A stretch of DNA of 59,550 nt from Escherichia phage BRET: the sequence record MK165087.1. The stretch is one strand, 5' to 3'. Positions 15,718-22,011 of the stretch are shown piece by piece. A program made the translations under genes and the position numbers. The notes under the pieces are model-generated. The model had not been told where the DNA came from, did no database searches, and saw only the letters and a program-made list of their open reading frames with translations. Position 1 is the stretch's first letter. Each line of letters begins with the position of its first letter.

Positions 15718-16126
15718 GACACCAGGCTGGCAGACAAGATTGTTGACCACAGTTAAACAGCTTGAGACAGTTCCTTTTGAATGGGGACAGAATGATTGTT
15801 GCATCTTTGCGGCTAAATGTATTGACGCTCAATATGGTACTACTATTAGCCAAGATGTTGTTGGTAAGTACAATAGTGAAATCAGCTGCAAACGCTTTAT
15901 GATTAGTCGAGTAAAAGACACGTCCTTACCTAAAGTGTTGGATTCCTTTTTACCAGTGCGAGTAGACCCAAGATTAGCTCAGAGGGGTGATGTTGTCATG
16001 TTTAATACGGACAATGGATTGACAGCCGGTGTATTGTGGACTGGTTGTGTCTGGGCTATGGGCCCGAGTGGGGTCACTACATTTAAGCGTGCCGACATAA
16101 AATTAATTGACGCATGGAGGGTTTAA
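15710..16126 (+). CDS. tail assembly protein, K-like (NlpC/P60-type Cys)
   Basis: ATG inside track ORF 15500..16126; WGQNDCCIF Cys motif; synteny. Confidence 0.5.
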   Translation: MNKTPGWQTRLLTTVKQLETVPFEWGQNDCCIFAAKCIDAQYGTTISQDVVGKYNSEISCKRFMISRVKDTSLPKVLDSFLPVRVDPRLAQRGDVVMFNTDNGLTAGVLWTGCVWAMGPSGVTTFKRADIKLIDAWRV

Positions 16127-16127
16127 T

Positions 16128-18752
16128 ATGCCACCAGCAATAATTGGAGCCGTTGTAGCTGTCGGTGCCGCTGTAGCTGGAGCCATAGGTGTTATCCCAG
16201 CTACAGTAGCACTTGTTGTGACTATTGCCGCTAGTACCGCTGGCGCATTATTGACTAAACCTAAGAGCTATGACTTTGGTGCTTATACACCTCAGAGTGA
16301 ACGTAAACAAGTTATCCGAGCTGCCGCTGCTGCAAGAACAGTTATATATGGGACTACAGTATCTAGTGGTGTTCTTGTATTCGCTGAGGAAGAACCGGGA
16401 GAACAGGACGAAGACGAAAAGTTGACTCTTGTTATCGCGTTAGCTGGCCATGAACTGACCGAAGTAGGCCAAGTGTGGTTAGGTGACGACACAATTGAAA
16501 GCTACGCTGAAAATGCACAATACGAAGTCTTTAATAACCCGACAAAAGTAAGCCAGAAGATGCTAGAATCATGCCCTTCATGGAAAGAAGATATGATTGG
16601 TAAAGGTATTTGCTGGTTAAAATTAAGTTTAAAATTTGATTCTGAAAAATTCCCGTCTGGTTTACCTAACGTTAAATGCCTTAAGAAAGGTCGAAAGGTA
16701 TTGGATCCAAGATCTAAACAGATGGTATTCACAGCTAATGCCGCACTTATTATTTTAGATTACCTTCGTGTATATTTAAAAAGAACGGACGATCAGATTT
16801 ACTGGGATCAATTTATTGAAGCTGCAAACATTTGCGACGAATATGTTGAAAACGTAGATGGATCATCCGAGCACCGATACACCATTAACGGAGAATTTGA
16901 TATAGACGAAGCTCCAGCTAAAGTCTTGGAAGACATGTTGGATGCTTGTGGTGGCGAATTGACTTACATTGGCGGTAAGCACGGGATTTTAGTTGGTGCA
17001 TATTATGGGCCTCCACAACACGTATTAGATGAGAGTTGTATTGCAGGCGATATTAAAATTACACCTGAAACTTCGTTCAAGGATCGTACAAACACTATCA
17101 CTGGTAAATATGTAGATCCACAACAGAATTACCAGGAAGCTGACTTCCCATCTGTTAGCATCAAAGAATACGTTGATGCAGATGGACAAGAAATTACGGA
17201 AGACTACGACTATCGCTTTGTTACAAGTCCCTATCAAGCTCAACGTCTTGCAACATTGACACTACGTCGTAAGCGCATCGGCCGTTCTATGGAAATACCA
17301 TGTAACATGAAAGGTTACAAGTTCCGTCCTGGAATGTACATCTATGTGACGATTAAACAGCTTGGAATTGAAAGAGTTGAAATGCGAGTCACTCAATGGC
17401 AGTTTGATCCACAAGGTGGAGTAACTCTGACATTACGACAAGACTTTGCGGAGTTGTGGGATGACGCAGTTGGTAAACCTGTAGAAAGACCAGACCTAGT
17501 CGAATTACCTACTGGTGGAGCTGTTCAGCCGCAAAACCTGAAATACGAAGTTCTTGAAATTAGCGACGTAGTGCAGGGTGTTTTATCGTGGCAGAATATT
17601 GGCGCTGTAGCCTATAACAGTGTGGTTATTAAGAAAGGTGGTGTAACTGTATTGACAGTGCAAGTACCGGGGCAGAGCACGCGGCTTACTGGACTTATTC
17701 GGGGTACTTATACCGCACATGTGAAAGCTACTGCTTACACTGGTGCAACTAGCCCCGAAGGTTACTTGGAATTTAATATTCAAGCACCTTCGACCCCATC
17801 TTCAGTAGAAGTAACTCAAGGTTATTTTTCAATAACTTTAAAACCAAAATCTGCAGATTTAACTAACGTCAGTACACAGTATGATTTCTGGACTTCCGGT
17901 GAAACGAGACTTCCATCTGCTGCTGTAGATATTGTAGAAAAACAAGCAACTCGTGCTGGTATGGGTACAACATGGACTTCGGAAGGGTTGCTCAATGACC
18001 ACACTTATTACTGGTACGTGCGAGCAATTAATGCGTTCGGTTCCTCAGCATTCATAGAAGTAGCTGCAAAATGCTTTACTGATGCTGCTGGTCTTATCCC
18101 TCAGATTGACAAGGAATTCAAAGACACAAACACTTATAGAGAGTTGATGTCCGAGATTGAAGGTGTCAGCGACGGGATTACATCTGTCAATGAAAGCCTT
18201 GTAGACGCAGAAAAGAGACTCAGCCAGAGTATTAACAGTGTTCAGGAGACTGTGAATGGTGTTAGTGCAACTGTGCAGCAAGTCAGTAAAGCTGTCGTAG
18301 ACCTAGAAGGTAACGTTAACGCCCAATGGGGTGCTAAAGTTCAAGTTGACAACAAAGGTCAGAAATATGTTGCTGGTATTCAATTAGGTTTAGAGGGTTC
18401 CGGTGGAGCTGTTCAATCTTACTTCATGGTGAGCGCAAACAACTTCGCTGTATATAATCCCACTAACAGTACCGCTGATCTTGCATTTGCTGTCAAAAAC
18501 GGTCAAGTGTATATGAAGGCAACGTTCATCGAGAACGGTTCCATAGATAACGCTAAGATTGGTAACTATATTCAATCGAACAACTTCTCTGCTGGCTACA
18601 GCGGATGGAGATTAAGTAAAGATGGTACATTTGAAAACTACGGGACTCCTACAAGTGAAGGTGCAATGAAGTTCACTAACAGCACGATCAGTGTAAAAGA
18701 TTCCAATGGTGTACTCCGTGTACAAATAGGTCGTATAACAGGATATTGGTGA
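16128..18752 (+). CDS. tail tip / central tail fiber protein (I/J-like)
   Basis: About 875 aa; hydrophobic Ala/Gly-rich N-terminus then large beta-rich body; GGAGGG RBS before second ATG. Confidence 0.6.
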   Translation: MPPAIIGAVVAVGAAVAGAIGVIPATVALVVTIAASTAGALLTKPKSYDFGAYTPQSERKQVIRAAAAARTVIYGTTVSSGVLVFAEEEPGEQDEDEKLTLVIALAGHELTEVGQVWLGDDTIESYAENAQYEVFNNPTKVSQKMLESCPSWKEDMIGKGICWLKLSLKFDSEKFPSGLPNVKCLKKGRKVLDPRSKQMVFTANAALIILDYLRVYLKRTDDQIYWDQFIEAANICDEYVENVDGSSEHRYTINGEFDIDEAPAKVLEDMLDACGGELTYIGGKHGILVGAYYGPPQHVLDESCIAGDIKITPETSFKDRTNTITGKYVDPQQNYQEADFPSVSIKEYVDADGQEITEDYDYRFVTSPYQAQRLATLTLRRKRIGRSMEIPCNMKGYKFRPGMYIYVTIKQLGIERVEMRVTQWQFDPQGGVTLTLRQDFAELWDDAVGKPVERPDLVELPTGGAVQPQNLKYEVLEISDVVQGVLSWQNIGAVAYNSVVIKKGGVTVLTVQVPGQSTRLTGLIRGTYTAHVKATAYTGATSPEGYLEFNIQAPSTPSSVEVTQGYFSITLKPKSADLTNVSTQYDFWTSGETRLPSAAVDIVEKQATRAGMGTTWTSEGLLNDHTYYWYVRAINAFGSSAFIEVAAKCFTDAAGLIPQIDKEFKDTNTYRELMSEIEGVSDGITSVNESLVDAEKRLSQSINSVQETVNGVSATVQQVSKAVVDLEGNVNAQWGAKVQVDNKGQKYVAGIQLGLEGSGGAVQSYFMVSANNFAVYNPTNSTADLAFAVKNGQVYMKATFIENGSIDNAKIGNYIQSNNFSAGYSGWRLSKDGTFENYGTPTSEGAMKFTNSTISVKDSNGVLRVQIGRITGYW

Positions 18753-18755
18753 TTT

Positions 18756-18786
18756 AAATGTGCACACATAGTATGTGTGCACATTT
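18756..18786. terminator. bidirectional hairpin between convergent genes
   Basis: Perfect 13-bp inverted repeat AAATGTGCACACA-tagta-TGTGTGCACATTT between a plus gene ending 18752 and a minus gene ending 18789. Confidence 0.55.
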
Positions 18787-18788
18787 AT

Positions 18789-19687
18789 CTAGTCGTATTT
18801 CGATGTGTTAATAACTAGAACCGTTCGCGAATAAATCTTTTTAACGTCTCGTGTAATATTTCCGGAATACCACTGGCCGTTATATATTTCATTTCCAGTC
18901 GCACCTGTCATTGTTACATAAGTAGGCCTGTCATAGTCGGTTCGTCTGTAATTATACACTCCAACCATAGCAGGCATTATTGCACACGGATAACCCATGT
19001 TTATTGTAAATTGCGGATCAGAAATATTAACAAGCTGCGCATCCAAAGGCATCATCTCTCCATGATATACCATTTGACCAGACCTGTTATAAAAAGCGAC
19101 ACCATATCCAGAATGTGGTAACACCATATCAGAAAATGCGTAAACTGTTATGACACCTGGGCTACCGTTAACTTGATGTAATCTTAATGCGTTGTAGCCG
19201 TTTCTTTGTTCGTGCATAAACATCATGTTCGCCTTTGCACCGCTTTTTATAAAGAAGAAACATGATTTGTTTGAAGGTATGGATGTTGTAAAAACAGAGT
19301 CCTTTGAAGTTCCCATCGTACCTTTATTAATTAAGTTCTGAGGTGTGAATTCAGGGCTCAACCACACGTTTCCATTCGGTTGAGCAATAGACATCCCATA
19401 CATGATTACCCCCAATAAGTATAAATATAAGACCCAAGACCTGTATATAAGTTCGACCAACTAATTGTATTACCACTAATTACAACAGAGGGAACTGGTA
19501 AGTCTATATAGTTATCGTTGTTAAAAGGAAGTATAGACCAAACAGCCTTTAATGCCTTTCCAGGTGGTGGACTGTCGTATGTCTTAGAACCAGAAGATGC
19601 TGTGAATCTATCTAAAAAGAAGATTGGAGTTAAAATACCAGTGACATCCACACCTTTAGAATTGTATACAGCAAAACCGTATTTCAT
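18789..19687 (-). CDS. hypothetical protein split by a frameshift at a G5 tract
   Basis: Two overlapping minus-strand ORFs (19406..19687 and 18789..19460) in frames that differ by -1, sharing related motifs (YGFAVYNSKG / YGVAFYNRSGQ). Confidence 0.4.
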
Positions 19688-19839
19688 TTATCACTCCAAT
19701 AATCAAATGTTCAAATCTAATACTAGAATAAAGCTATTATACATTTATATTATATACCTAATGCACATCTGAATACTTGTTATTATACCTGTTTAATTTT
19801 ACTATATGTATCTAGTATTCTCAATGTAAAGAGGCGAAC

Positions 19840-22011
19840 ATGTCGATTCGTTTAACTGGTATTTTAGTTGACGGGTTGAATAATCCGTTAGTTAATACTA
19901 CTGTCACACTAATTGCAAGAAGTAACACGTTACTAGTGTTAGGTAGTAGCGAAGCTGTATTTCGCACAGACGCACAAGGTGCATATAATATCACAGTGAA
20001 CCCAGGGCACTATGTGGTCATAGTAGGCCCTCAAGGAAAAGAACCATATAAAGCAGGTGAAATTGTTCTTTATGCAGATAGCCCAGAGGGATCTCTCAAT
20101 GGATATCTGGTCAATTGGGTGGAAGAAGAACTAACACCAGATGTTATCAAACAAGTTCAACAACTTGTGGCTAACTCTGAGGAATACGCGTTACAAGCTG
20201 GTCGCTCTGCTGCGGCAGCAAATGCAGATGCTACGGATGCTCGCAATAGTAAGGCTTCAGCTGCTCAATCTGCTTCGGATGCACTTGTCTATAAAAATGA
20301 TGCTAAAGCTAGTGAAGACGCTGCTAGACAAGCACAGGCTGGAGCTGCCGGTTCTGCTAACACTGCATCACAAGCTGTAACCACAATTCAAGGTCTAAAA
20401 TCTGAGGTTGAGCAGTTAAAAGTAGACACACAGACTATTAAAGATAGTGCAGTAAGCGAGACGCAAGCAATTAAGAATAGTGCAGTAACCGAAACACAAG
20501 CAATTAAAGACGCTGCTGTGTCCGAAACTACCGCGCTAAAAGATGCTGCCGCTGCTTCAGCTACACAAGCAAGCAATAGCGCCACTGAAGCTGGACAACA
20601 AGCAAGCAACGCGGGTACAAGCGCAACCGCAGCTAAAAACGACGCGGACCGTGCAAAGGTAGAAGCAGACCGTGCGGAAGTTGCAGCTAACAGGGCTCCG
20701 GATCTTCAACCATTCCCTGATGTATGGATTCCATTTAATGACTCGCTGGATATGCTTGCAGGTTACTCGCCAGGCTATAAGAAAATAACAGTTGGTGAAG
20801 ATGTTATTACAATGCCTTCTGATAAGGTTGTTAATTTCTCGCGTGCGTCAAATGCAACATATATAAACAAACACGGTGAGTTTTGTATTGCTAATATCGA
20901 TGAACCTAGATTTGAAAAGCAAGGACTCTTAATCGAAGGGCAGAGGACAAACCACATTACTTTTAGTAACGACCCGGCTTCCTTAAACACGGATAGACAT
21001 CGTAGCGATGTTACATATGGTGTTGATAAGTATGGTTTTACATACATAACGGCAACTGTAAACCAAAATGGTCAAGGTGATACGCCATCACTATTTTATT
21101 GCGAATACAATAATAGCATATATTGTCAGCAGAACGAATACGCAACCTTATCTATTAGAGTGAAAGCAAATAATATTTCCATAATTCCTCAATTTTATGC
21201 GTTGGGAGAAGATAATGCCCTTATTCTTGTTGCAAGATCTATATTGTCGTGTGATACAGGGGAGGTTACATCTACACTCGAAGCTAGAGGAACTGTAACA
21301 CACAGAATCACCAAAGAAGATAACGGATGGCTGAAGGTTGAGATAATATGTAAATTTTCTGATATTGCAGGTGCTATGATTGGGAGCATCAACTATGCCC
21401 ACGGCCCTAACGGAGGTAATGTGCAAGTTGGGGATACAATATCCTTTTGTACCCCGCAGTTTGAAAAGGGTTTTTGTGCATCCTCCTTCATTATTACGGG
21501 GAGCACACCTGCAACAAGGGCTGTGGATTATGTTACTATACCTGCGAGAAATAATTTCTCAGGGATGAATATTTCATTCCTTGCTGAGGTGAGCGTTAAC
21601 TGGGATACCTTTCAATTAGATAATACATACCCAATGATAGTTGATAACAACCAGTACTTCGTAAGAGGAAAAGCATTTGTTGCGGAATTTGACGCAACCA
21701 CCGCTACACCTTACTCGTATGTAGTAAATGAAGATGGATCAACTATATTATCAAGAGGTTATGCATTTGAAAAACAACCTTCTTCACATGTGTTTGGTTT
21801 TATTTTTAGTGGTAATGGAGACGTCACCTCATTTGTTAATGGGAATAAGGGGGGTACTTCACATGGTTCTACATGGAAAGGAACAGACTCGGACTCCCTA
21901 GTAGAAGTAGGTGGAAGACTTTCAGATTCAACTAAATTGTACGGTCATATTCGTAACCTTAGAATATGGAATCGAGTATTAACGGATAGTCAAATGAGGG
22001 AGAAAGTTTAA
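19840..22011 (+). CDS. tail fiber protein
   Basis: 723 aa; Ala-rich N-terminal repeats (ETQAIKDSAVS x3-4); C-terminal region possibly lectin-like; AAGAGG RBS. Confidence 0.6.
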   Translation: MSIRLTGILVDGLNNPLVNTTVTLIARSNTLLVLGSSEAVFRTDAQGAYNITVNPGHYVVIVGPQGKEPYKAGEIVLYADSPEGSLNGYLVNWVEEELTPDVIKQVQQLVANSEEYALQAGRSAAAANADATDARNSKASAAQSASDALVYKNDAKASEDAARQAQAGAAGSANTASQAVTTIQGLKSEVEQLKVDTQTIKDSAVSETQAIKNSAVTETQAIKDAAVSETTALKDAAAASATQASNSATEAGQQASNAGTSATAAKNDADRAKVEADRAEVAANRAPDLQPFPDVWIPFNDSLDMLAGYSPGYKKITVGEDVITMPSDKVVNFSRASNATYINKHGEFCIANIDEPRFEKQGLLIEGQRTNHITFSNDPASLNTDRHRSDVTYGVDKYGFTYITATVNQNGQGDTPSLFYCEYNNSIYCQQNEYATLSIRVKANNISIIPQFYALGEDNALILVARSILSCDTGEVTSTLEARGTVTHRITKEDNGWLKVEIICKFSDIAGAMIGSINYAHGPNGGNVQVGDTISFCTPQFEKGFCASSFIITGSTPATRAVDYVTIPARNNFSGMNISFLAEVSVNWDTFQLDNTYPMIVDNNQYFVRGKAFVAEFDATTATPYSYVVNEDGSTILSRGYAFEKQPSSHVFGFIFSGNGDVTSFVNGNKGGTSHGSTWKGTDSDSLVEVGGRLSDSTKLYGHIRNLRIWNRVLTDSQMREKV

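Follow-up and report, generated by a model that had tools for sequence, protein, structure and literature searches.

Does the minus-strand locus of phage BRET that lies among tail genes read from the opposite strand hold one gene interrupted at a run of five G residues, or two genes that meet at that run, and what role would the encoded protein or proteins play? The upstream open reading frame (gene A) closes with TGG GGG TAA, and the first-pass annotation had noted that the downstream frame (gene B) lies in the -1 frame and that the two could be joined into a protein of about 299 aa. All of this agrees with our direct reading of the minus-strand junction, which is ...ACT TAT TGG GGG TAA TC ATG TAT GGG ATG.... 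Relative to gene A, gene B is in frame +2 (= -1), a frame which is open for 19 codons 5' of the gene B ATG, and a hypothetical fusion through one added G or a -1 slip would comprise 93 + 2 + 204 = 299 aa, with the predicted trans-frame junction peptide ...YIYTYWGVIMYGMSIAQPNGNVWLSPEFTPQNLINK. A programmed frameshift, a phase-variable switch, and a pseudogene or sequencing error had each been put forward to account for this arrangement, together with a role of the product in host interaction.

Organization of the locus

The genome is of the JenP1/JenP2-like Nonagvirus type, with 96-97% nucleotide identity to both phages across this region. The features of the locus are collected in Table 1, in which positions are counted along the window, that is, the whole 59,550-nt stretch of DNA analysed. 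The two promoter matches upstream of gene A (TTTACA-18-TATAGT and TTGAGA-17-TAAAAT, each agreeing at 10/12 positions) are putative, being called by consensus match alone. The hairpin that separates the convergent stop codons of gene B and of the central tail fibre gene J has 8 pairs and a T-rich tail on the plus strand; its palindrome is readable directly in the sequence, and it is likely a bidirectional terminator.

Table 1. Features of the A/B locus of phage BRET and of its immediate surroundings.
Feature	Position	Strand	Description
Gene A	19406..19687	-	93 aa + stop, MKYGFAVYNSKG...YIYTYWG-stop; predicted small first subunit
Gene B	18789..19403	-	204 aa + stop, MYGMSIAQPNGNVW...VLVINTSKYD-stop; predicted all-beta, two domains
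G5 tract	19409..19413	-	last two bases of TGG plus GGG, closing gene A
Gene A TAA stop	19408..19406	-	
Spacer TC	19405..19404	-	2 nt, preceding the gene B ATG
Gene B ATG	19403	-	
Central tail fibre gene J	16107..18752	+	GpJ homologue, 881 aa; from ORF list and Pfam
Lateral tail fibre gene	19840..22011	+	divergent from gene A, with a 152-nt gap between
Two overlapping sigma-70-like promoter matches	19796..19830	-	putative; upstream of gene A, inside the 152-nt gap
Palindromic hairpin	18759..18781		separates the stop of J (18752) from the convergent stop of B (18789)

Conservation of the split

Comparison with the homologues of related phages, set beforehand as the refuting test for an interrupted gene, found these homologues to be likewise split. 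The census comprised 113 loci holding both A and B, with 18 distinct junction sequences among them; all 113 were split and none was fused. A stop codon (TAA, TGA or TAG) closes gene A at every locus examined, and at one locus where the original stop has been lost (L087), A ends 6 codons later and the split is retained. In JenP1 and JenP2 the junction is identical to that of BRET, with A and B annotated as separate CDSs, and the same junction is found in one IMG/VR contig. The split is likewise kept where the G run is missing, in L032, Sweeny, Bas12, Amona and DU_PP_V: the Sweeny junction reads ...ATG AGT TGA agatt ATG, while Amona has an ATGA overlap and DU_PP_V a TAATG overlap.

Gene A matched phrog_557 over profile positions 1-92 of 100 (E 3e-27), and gene B matched phrog_425 over positions 3-224 of 224 (E 1e-68). 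By tblastn, B was found in 358 phage records and A in 277, the carriers being Stx-converting podoviruses (933W L0126/L0127), T1-like Drexlerviridae, Klebsiella Webervirus and phages of ~108 kb; a contig scan of genomes gave a 263-nt fragment from Xanthomonas pisi as its sole match. The dN/dS of A against JenP1 was 0.16, and that of B was 0.02 against JenP1 and 0.06 against Cyrano; as estimated by these ratios, both frames are under purifying selection.

A pseudogene, or a sequencing or assembly error in a single gene of ~299 aa, would account for the overlap of two frames at a homopolymer, which is a classic error signature, and for the existence of single-chain homologues (described below). 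However, the junction is repeated in the independently sequenced JenP1, JenP2 and IMG/VR contig, more than 100 further loci in different phage families are split, purifying selection is strong on both frames (dN/dS 0.02-0.16) and both have full-length PHROG matches, so that this explanation, which was among those first considered, retains almost no probability. As far as sequence comparison goes, this small minus-strand operon has two real genes, A and B, each translated on its own.

Origin of the G run and translation of gene B

The C-terminus of gene A is conserved as ...Y-I-Y-T-(Y/F)-W-G-stop. The codons TGG GGN contain four Gs by necessity, and five if the glycine codon is GGG; every lineage with the W-G ending has either G4 (TGG GGA) or G5 (TGG GGG), with Cyrano and 933W carrying TGG GGA at the end of A. 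In L032 the junction is TGG AGG TGA, giving a canonical GGAGG instead of a G run. The tract in BRET sits 5 nt 5' of the gene B ATG, itself conserved and aligned to residue 1 of the B family, and its duplex with the anti-Shine-Dalgarno sequence (-9.7 kcal/mol) is in the top 0.2% of positions across the 59,550-nt window. By its pairing energy and position, the G tract is the core of a predicted Shine-Dalgarno-like site for gene B. The run is therefore explained by the conserved Trp-Gly ending and by its double use as the gene B ribosome-binding site. With the Gs of these two codons acting as ribosome-binding site and an ATG only 2 nt after the TAA, gene B would be translated by coupling or re-initiation, not by frameshifting.

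Frameshifting and phase variation

A -1 slip on G GGG G, programmed or low-level, while the slowly decoded TAA occupies the A site, would produce a 299-aa A-B protein beside free A and free B. Such a slip is consistent with B lying in the -1 frame and being open across the junction, and with offsets of -4, -1, +2 and +5 in most lineages, all of which preserve the -1 frame; tRNA-Gly, as read from the sequence, would pair again without mismatch once shifted by -1 on G GGG, the single-chain homologues make a folded fusion product plausible, and there is a downstream hairpin (z = -2.2). The site, however, has no X XXY YYZ heptamer, TAT TGG GGG TAA permitting re-pairing of a single tRNA on G GGG only. 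The hairpin begins ~22 nt past the tract, whereas the usual distance from a slip site to its stimulatory structure is 5-9 nt, and it is not conserved: RNAalifold over 9 divergent junctions gave -1.9 kcal/mol with essentially no covariation.

The behaviour of the junction among homologues also speaks against slippage. Beside the split lineages named above that have no slippery run, L110 has a spacer of 3 nt, which puts its B in frame 0, where its sister L111 has a spacer of 2 nt; the probably related YncD-type pair of Bas11, whose spacer is 9 nt, is likewise in frame 0; and in L123-125 (three contigs from different samples) the sequence TGG GGG TAG g ATG places B in +1. Gene B of BRET has, moreover, its own ATG and the strong Shine-Dalgarno pairing described above. 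The constancy of the spacer modulo 3 was considered as evidence of frameshifting and was ruled out as such by the frame-0, +1 and run-less junctions. This constancy is expected without frameshifting, because stops and starts relocate by substitution, which preserves the frame, and because frame-changing indels are tolerable only within the 2-5-nt spacer, flanked as it is by conserved residues; overlaps of -4 and -1 are the commonest kind in operons. With no heptamer, no conserved stimulator, and a frame and G run that vary among homologues, the proposal of a programmed frameshift finds no support, and slippage at this tract, programmed or low-level, is very unlikely. The near-universal -1 frame would nonetheless be functional if a small fraction of ribosomes slipped to give a single-chain A-B as in Vid5-type phages. 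We regard this, too, as quite improbable; were it true, virions would have mixed split and fused receptor-binding tips with differing properties.

If slipped-strand changes in the G tract toggled the locus between split A + B and fused A-B, it would be a phase-variable homopolymer, and one added G would indeed fuse the two frames, with fused and split forms both known in the wider family. A tract of 5 Gs is short for a contingency locus, however, and the G4/G5 difference is one of synonymous codons (GGA/GGG), not a change in tract length. Across the 113 loci the tract is never other than 4 or 5 where present and no fused allele occurs, while in the natural fused forms the linker is longer and unrelated, with no G tract at the equivalent position. 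The phase-variable switch can be set aside as exceedingly improbable. The locus is of a known type, and its two genes meet at a coupled junction of the ordinary kind that is not notable as a candidate for frameshifting or switching.

A and B as counterparts of a three-domain chain

The first-pass annotation had seen related motifs in the two frames, and the relationship is borne out by a common N-terminal motif and by profile comparison. Both A and B start with M-x-Y-G-phi-x-phi-(Y/W)-(N/D)-x-x-G, a motif which is repeated near residue 98 of B, and hhalign aligned A 1-50 with B 1-52 (probability 81%, E 1.2e-5). BLASTP of A against B was not significant (E 0.11); the relationship is visible at the profile level only, and at that level A is related to the N-terminal domain of B. 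When A and B were aligned together, MAFFT stacked the N-terminal domains of B onto A, and the mixed alignment was dropped for that reason.

Most proteins found in an exhaustive phmmer search with the hypothetical fusion were ~90 aa or ~205-225 aa long; a few, of 307-323 aa, were colinear with it across the junction. Single-chain homologues carry all three copies of the motif (A start, B start and mid-B) and align end to end with A+B, at 21-24% identity and with 23 invariant columns. Examples are gp23 of Pantoea phage Vid5 (326 aa), CDS0036 of Pectobacterium phage Sabo (318 aa) and a protein of Yersinia phage P400; another 21, of 309-324 aa, are metagenomic. Gene A aligns with residues 1-~95 of Vid5 gp23, Sabo CDS0036, P0053 and related proteins. 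Whereas Sabo has the single chain, its six sister phages (Amona and five others) are split with the ATGA overlap, as is the T5-like DU_PP_V with its TAATG overlap; the family thus exists in fused and split form even among close relatives. Judged from this colinearity, A corresponds to the N-terminal domain, and B to the other two domains, of a predicted three-domain all-beta chain of ~310-325 aa. The idea of one protein of ~300 aa therefore has an evolutionary basis in the natural single-chain homologues, although in BRET two separate ORFs encode it.

The single-chain homologues of ~310 aa were also considered as LptD receptor-binding proteins, and were rejected as such: tblastn with P0072 finds phages of Pantoea, Pectobacterium and Yersinia, not LptD phages.

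The module at the receptor-binding locus

In small siphoviruses the bona fide receptor-binding protein (RBP) locus is found downstream of gpJ (Maffei et al., 2021; PMC8594841), and a 2026 preprint confirms this locus, with alleles linked to FhuA, BtuB, LptD or YncD. The A/B pair stands at this position, with the stop of B convergent with that of J (Table 1), and J has no receptor-binding domain of its own. The Pfam matches in J are PF09327 (Phage_Tail_Tip) at residues 722-859, PF24489 and PF13550; its C-terminus is the Phage_Tail_Tip domain, with no lambda-type receptor-binding domain found by Pfam.

Among siphoviruses the module lies directly beside the central fibre gene, an adjacency seen in at least 10 lineages. 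In Vid5, Sabo, Sweeny, Bas12, DU_PP_V (after pb4) and prophage and metagenome lineages it overlaps that gene and runs in the same direction; in BRET, tonnikala and JK16 it is convergent with J. In the podovirus 933W, the gene just upstream of the module ends in ...VYDQNGRLAVRIGRLR, a motif like that of the J tip, and in the Cyrano-type 108-kb phages the pair is found among moron-like genes (Ea22-type, DUF4942) with no obvious tail gene adjoining.

The last residues of J are ...VLRVQIGRITGYW, and the ending ...GRITG(Y/S/V)W is common to JK16, Bas12 and Sweeny, whose J proteins all accompany two-gene modules. The J of Vid5 is the closest overall (50% over 873 aa), but ends ...VCVMGARL and so differs at the tip, and of the last 67 residues, the J of the related Nonagvirus 9g matches no more than the first 29. 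Since the tip matches those of JK16, Bas12 and Sweeny and not those of Vid5 or 9g, these ~14 residues travel with the type of module, which is what one would expect of an interface. The GpJ C-terminal tip is flagged as specificity-associated in the 2026 preprint. We infer that the C-terminal tip of J may be the docking site for A/B, with the last ~14 residues marking the likely interface.

In profile-profile comparison the B family matched DUF6453 with a probability of 91% (E 9e-7), aligning B 51-130 with residues 158-239 of the RBP; this alignment is colinear when A+B (297 aa) is set against the RBP (311 aa). The B HMM also matches the RBP of Bas14, at the shared central motif. Neither the single-chain family nor the A family was significant against DUF6453 in hhalign, and a Pfam scan of A and B found no family at E <= 0.1, DUF6453 included. 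Foldseek against the PDB gave no significant match; chain 9rpt_C was at rank 15 (E 0.049, TM 0.32), yet had the highest probability (0.89). The top Foldseek matches, C-terminal domains of PCSK9 (E ~0.01, TM ~0.26), were set aside as non-specific beta-sandwich similarity. When the PDB was searched by sequence profile, neither the B family nor the single-chain family had a useful match; the one hit, to MalY (E 0.86), was a chance one. An AF2 model of the fused A+B had a pLDDT of 65, with the A region poor, and offers no basis for A-B packing.

It might be argued that A and B are genuine genes and yet not virion RBPs, forming instead an intracellular or moron-type module that serves in exclusion, as an aid to tail-fibre assembly or in another way. 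The pair has promoter-like sites of its own and lies on the strand opposite to the tail operon, the PHROGs category of B is "moron, auxiliary metabolic gene and host takeover", the Cyrano pair is set among Ea22-type and DUF4942 genes, and the support from Foldseek is weak. In LC-MS/MS of Vid5 virions, gp23 was absent from the 11 proteins detected; this is a weak negative, since only 7 peptides came from J and further tail-tip proteins escaped detection as well. On the other hand, neither A nor B has an evident signal peptide or membrane segment in its sequence, which argues against exclusion at the envelope, and a PADLOC scan of A and B found no match. The fold match, not significant in Foldseek, is to a solved RBP and is joined by the profile match; the homologous Bas12 0024 and Warwickvirus genes are published RBP calls that correlate with receptor phenotype; in many lineages the module overlaps J or pb4 and is read in the same direction; and the J tip co-varies with the module. 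A non-RBP role is thus unlikely, and is kept as the alternative of some weight because of the undetected Vid5 gp23, the promoter-like sites, the lack of a lipoprotein (see below), the moron setting in Cyrano and the poor A+B model.

The suggestion of a host-interaction or receptor-binding role, made at the outset, draws support from genomic position, from fold, from remote homology and from the receptor phenotypes seen in relatives. As judged by homology, A/B is the JenP1/JenP2-type Nonagvirus allele of the RBP locus downstream of gpJ; the receptor-binding tip of the tail is most likely made up of A and B, and gene B is probably the receptor-binding subunit. The J fibre would carry A and B on its C-terminal tip, and the distal loops of B would bind an outer-membrane protein, by which irreversible adsorption would be triggered. 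In the FhuA paper in J Virol (2023), J itself was treated as the RBP, and A/B was not addressed.

Predicted receptor and significance

The A/B genes are carried by JK16, tunus, Tuinin, MartyMcPhage and Kalemo (listed as Kameto), and these phages are listed as BtuB-dependent, as shown experimentally. Compared with JK16, B has 42% identity over 204/204 residues and A has 49% over its full length, values which lie inside the family criterion of the preprint (>30% identity, >99% coverage). BtuB is the likeliest receptor, since the homologous Warwickvirus module belongs to BtuB-dependent phages; this prediction by homology is tentative, and we hold it with slightly less than even confidence. Receptor specificity could differ, because the Stx-phage copies (60% identical) are closer to this pair than the BtuB-typed Warwickvirus copies are. 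Within Nonagvirus, Bas19 and Bas20 have the DUF6453 allele and depend on LptD.

JK16, tonnikala, Bas12 and Bas14 each encode an exclusion lipoprotein beside the module, and at the equivalent position Bas11 has a protein with a signal peptide. Within the 59,550-nt window neither a lipobox ORF nor a homologue of JK16 gp77 was found; an exclusion lipoprotein beside the RBP locus is frequent, not universal (2026 preprint). Taken as a whole, the locus is best explained as a coupled two-gene receptor-binding module, with A/B on the J tip and BtuB as the likeliest receptor, and we consider this reading probable.

The BtuB- and FhuA-type two-gene modules and the LptD-type single-chain RBP have recently been described as unrelated families. 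In our comparisons, one ancestry and one three-domain plan are well supported for the BtuB- and FhuA-type modules, the inclusion of the LptD type in this common plan is moderately supported, and the evidence for the YncD type is suggestive. If the common plan is confirmed, the 9RPT structure is a possible template for other receptor classes. Engineering of receptor specificity could take the natural boundary between A and B as a guide. Public annotations as "outer membrane protein" or "membrane associated protein", or records in which A is omitted, can be read as a Nonagvirus receptor-binding module, and the BtuB prediction for phages of the JenP1/JenP2 type is testable. The interest of the locus is modest, and lies in the fused/split relationship and in the link to a solved RBP structure.

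Comparison with known systems

The lambda G/GT and T7 10A/10B frameshift systems are like this locus in having a 0/-1 pair of ORFs (within the tail gene region) and a run of identical bases that ends the upstream ORF. In contrast to them, there is here no heptamer, conserved stimulator, conserved run or conserved frame, and B is an independent full-length family with its own start and ribosome-binding site.

In phage T5, pb5 is the RBP on the tip of the straight fibre pb4, and Llp is the exclusion lipoprotein. The logic here would be analogous, with a separately encoded RBP on the tip of a central fibre, and in the T5-like DU_PP_V, A and B directly follow pb4. Fold and PDB profile searches found no relationship of A/B to pb5 in sequence or fold, and an Llp-like gene is absent here.

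The LptD RBP (Oekolampad, Rtp Rtp44 and TheodorHerzl; DUF6453, PF20051; PDB 9RPT chain C) is a single polypeptide, has ~13% identity with no detectable similarity in the A region, and has LptD as its receptor. By profile comparison it is a remote relative, not a member of the same family. The single-chain homologues of Vid5 type are colinear with A+B, have the three motif copies and lie directly after J in those phages; a linker of 8-12 residues stands where stop, spacer and start are found in BRET.

The FhuA-type module of Bas12 BrunoManser, 0023 (101 aa) and 0024 (223 aa), and the Webervirus module of Sweeny, gp47 and gp48, share the two-gene architecture, with a stop followed by 2 nt (or 5 nt) and an ATG, the -1 frame, a position directly after J and the ...GRITGxW tip; in HMM searches the Bas12 module was matched at E 1e-13 (A-like) and 1e-24 (B-like). 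These modules differ in being co-oriented with J, in an end of A that is not W-G and has no G run, and in a B identity of ~23%; the receptor of Bas12 is FhuA. The YncD-type pair of Bas11 (99 + 216 aa) is alike in shape and motif, with no significant score.

The Warwickvirus module (Drexlerviridae; JK16, tunus, Tuinin, MartyMcPhage and Bas04) has in addition a third gene upstream of A, for an 89-aa lipoprotein that is presumed to be an exclusion factor, and its receptor has been established experimentally, whereas that of BRET is predicted by homology. Both genes and their order are the same in the two modules, which are also alike in the ...Y-I-Y-T-(Y/F)-W-G-stop ending of A, in the stop + 2 nt + ATG junction, in the operon convergent with J and in the ...GRITGxW tip of J.

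Probable exchange at the 3' end of the central tail fibre gene

The central tail fibre gene J, a GpJ homologue that converges on the likely receptor-binding (RBP) module formed by genes A and B, is composite. Across 873 aa the window J is 50% identical to that of phage Vid5, the terminal ...VLRVQIGRITGYW has its counterpart in T1-like phages with two-gene RBP modules, and the J of Nonagvirus 9g diverges from the window J in the final ~38 residues. Taken together, the Vid5-like body, the T1-like end and the divergence from 9g suggest that the 3' end of J and the RBP module are swapped as one. The palindrome between J and B is probably a bidirectional terminator. With terminase-to-tail genes on the plus strand and replication genes on the minus strand, the full window (1-59550) is apparently all, or nearly all, of a JenP2-like Nonagvirus genome (59,550 nt vs 59,802 nt).

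Coordinates of features in the window and in homologous loci (L handles)
Feature	Location	Remark
Last ~14 codons of J	window 18708-18749	mosaic boundary inside J
Perfect palindrome TGTGCACACATA...TATGTGTGCA	window 18759-18781	between convergent stops of J and B
Cyrano A/B	L003 3936-4834	~108-kb phage
JK16 gene A	L126 4501-4770	unannotated in RefSeq
DU_PP_V gene A	L117 4001-4284	unannotated in RefSeq
Amona gene A	L115 4001-~4290	annotated only as 41-aa fragment
933W gene A (L0126)	L004 4001-4279	annotated start too late
Gene A in L123	3736-3999	one of three metagenome contigs where gene A is not called
Bas11 RBP locus	L127 19792-21158	
Bas12 RBP locus	L128 20048-21289	
Bas14 RBP locus	L129 20409-21574	

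Distribution, junctions and annotation of A and B

Outside Nonagvirus, the nearest copies of A/B (78-82% identity) are carried by ~108-kb phages, represented by Cyrano (L003) and by IMG/VR contigs of 106-114 kb (L021, L023, L026 and L033); their neighbours are Ea22/Ead, DUF4942 and TciA-like genes, with no obvious tail gene adjoining. The sole match in the species-representative genome collection is a 263-nt contig of Xanthomonas pisi DSM 18956 (L113), which encodes a fragment of B at 57% identity and could be contamination or a piece of a prophage. Four records of ~48-50 kb labelled “Campylobacter phage” (Campylobacter jejuni; MG065643, MG065649, MG065681 and MG065687) also carry A/B, and their J tips are of the T1-like coliphage type; the label or host assignment of these records looks doubtful.

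The junction between the two genes varies among homologous loci. In L087 the stop of A is lost, leaving A six codons longer and overlapping B by 13 nt, while a single A in the spacer separates L110 (TAAaaaATG) from L111 (TAAaaATG) and alters the relative frame. Two further loci, L105 and L107 (match length 616 nt), have an apparent 1-nt indel early in B, which could reflect a pseudogene or an error.

Gene A is frequently absent or shortened in public annotation. The product names handed down for window 18789-19687 and its homologues, “outer membrane protein” for A and “membrane associated protein” for B, have nothing visible to support them: no signal peptide, lipobox or hydrophobic stretch is evident in either protein, and the predicted model of B is soluble and all-beta.

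Comparison with other receptor-binding loci

In JK16 and tonnikala an 89-aa lipoprotein gene lies upstream of A, and in Bas12 and Bas14 a lipoprotein gene is likewise found beside the RBP module, whereas the window has no superinfection-exclusion lipoprotein gene at the corresponding position (19688-19839), nor was any lipobox ORF or gp77 homologue found across its whole length. A gene of ~90-100 aa followed by one of ~205-225 aa is the layout common to the YncD-, FhuA- and BtuB-linked RBP loci; the LptD-linked locus has a single ~311-aa gene. A recent preprint called these RBP families unrelated. The common layout, together with the small signal-peptide or lipoprotein gene present in each of these loci, points to YncD-, FhuA-, BtuB- and LptD-linked RBPs forming one superfamily.
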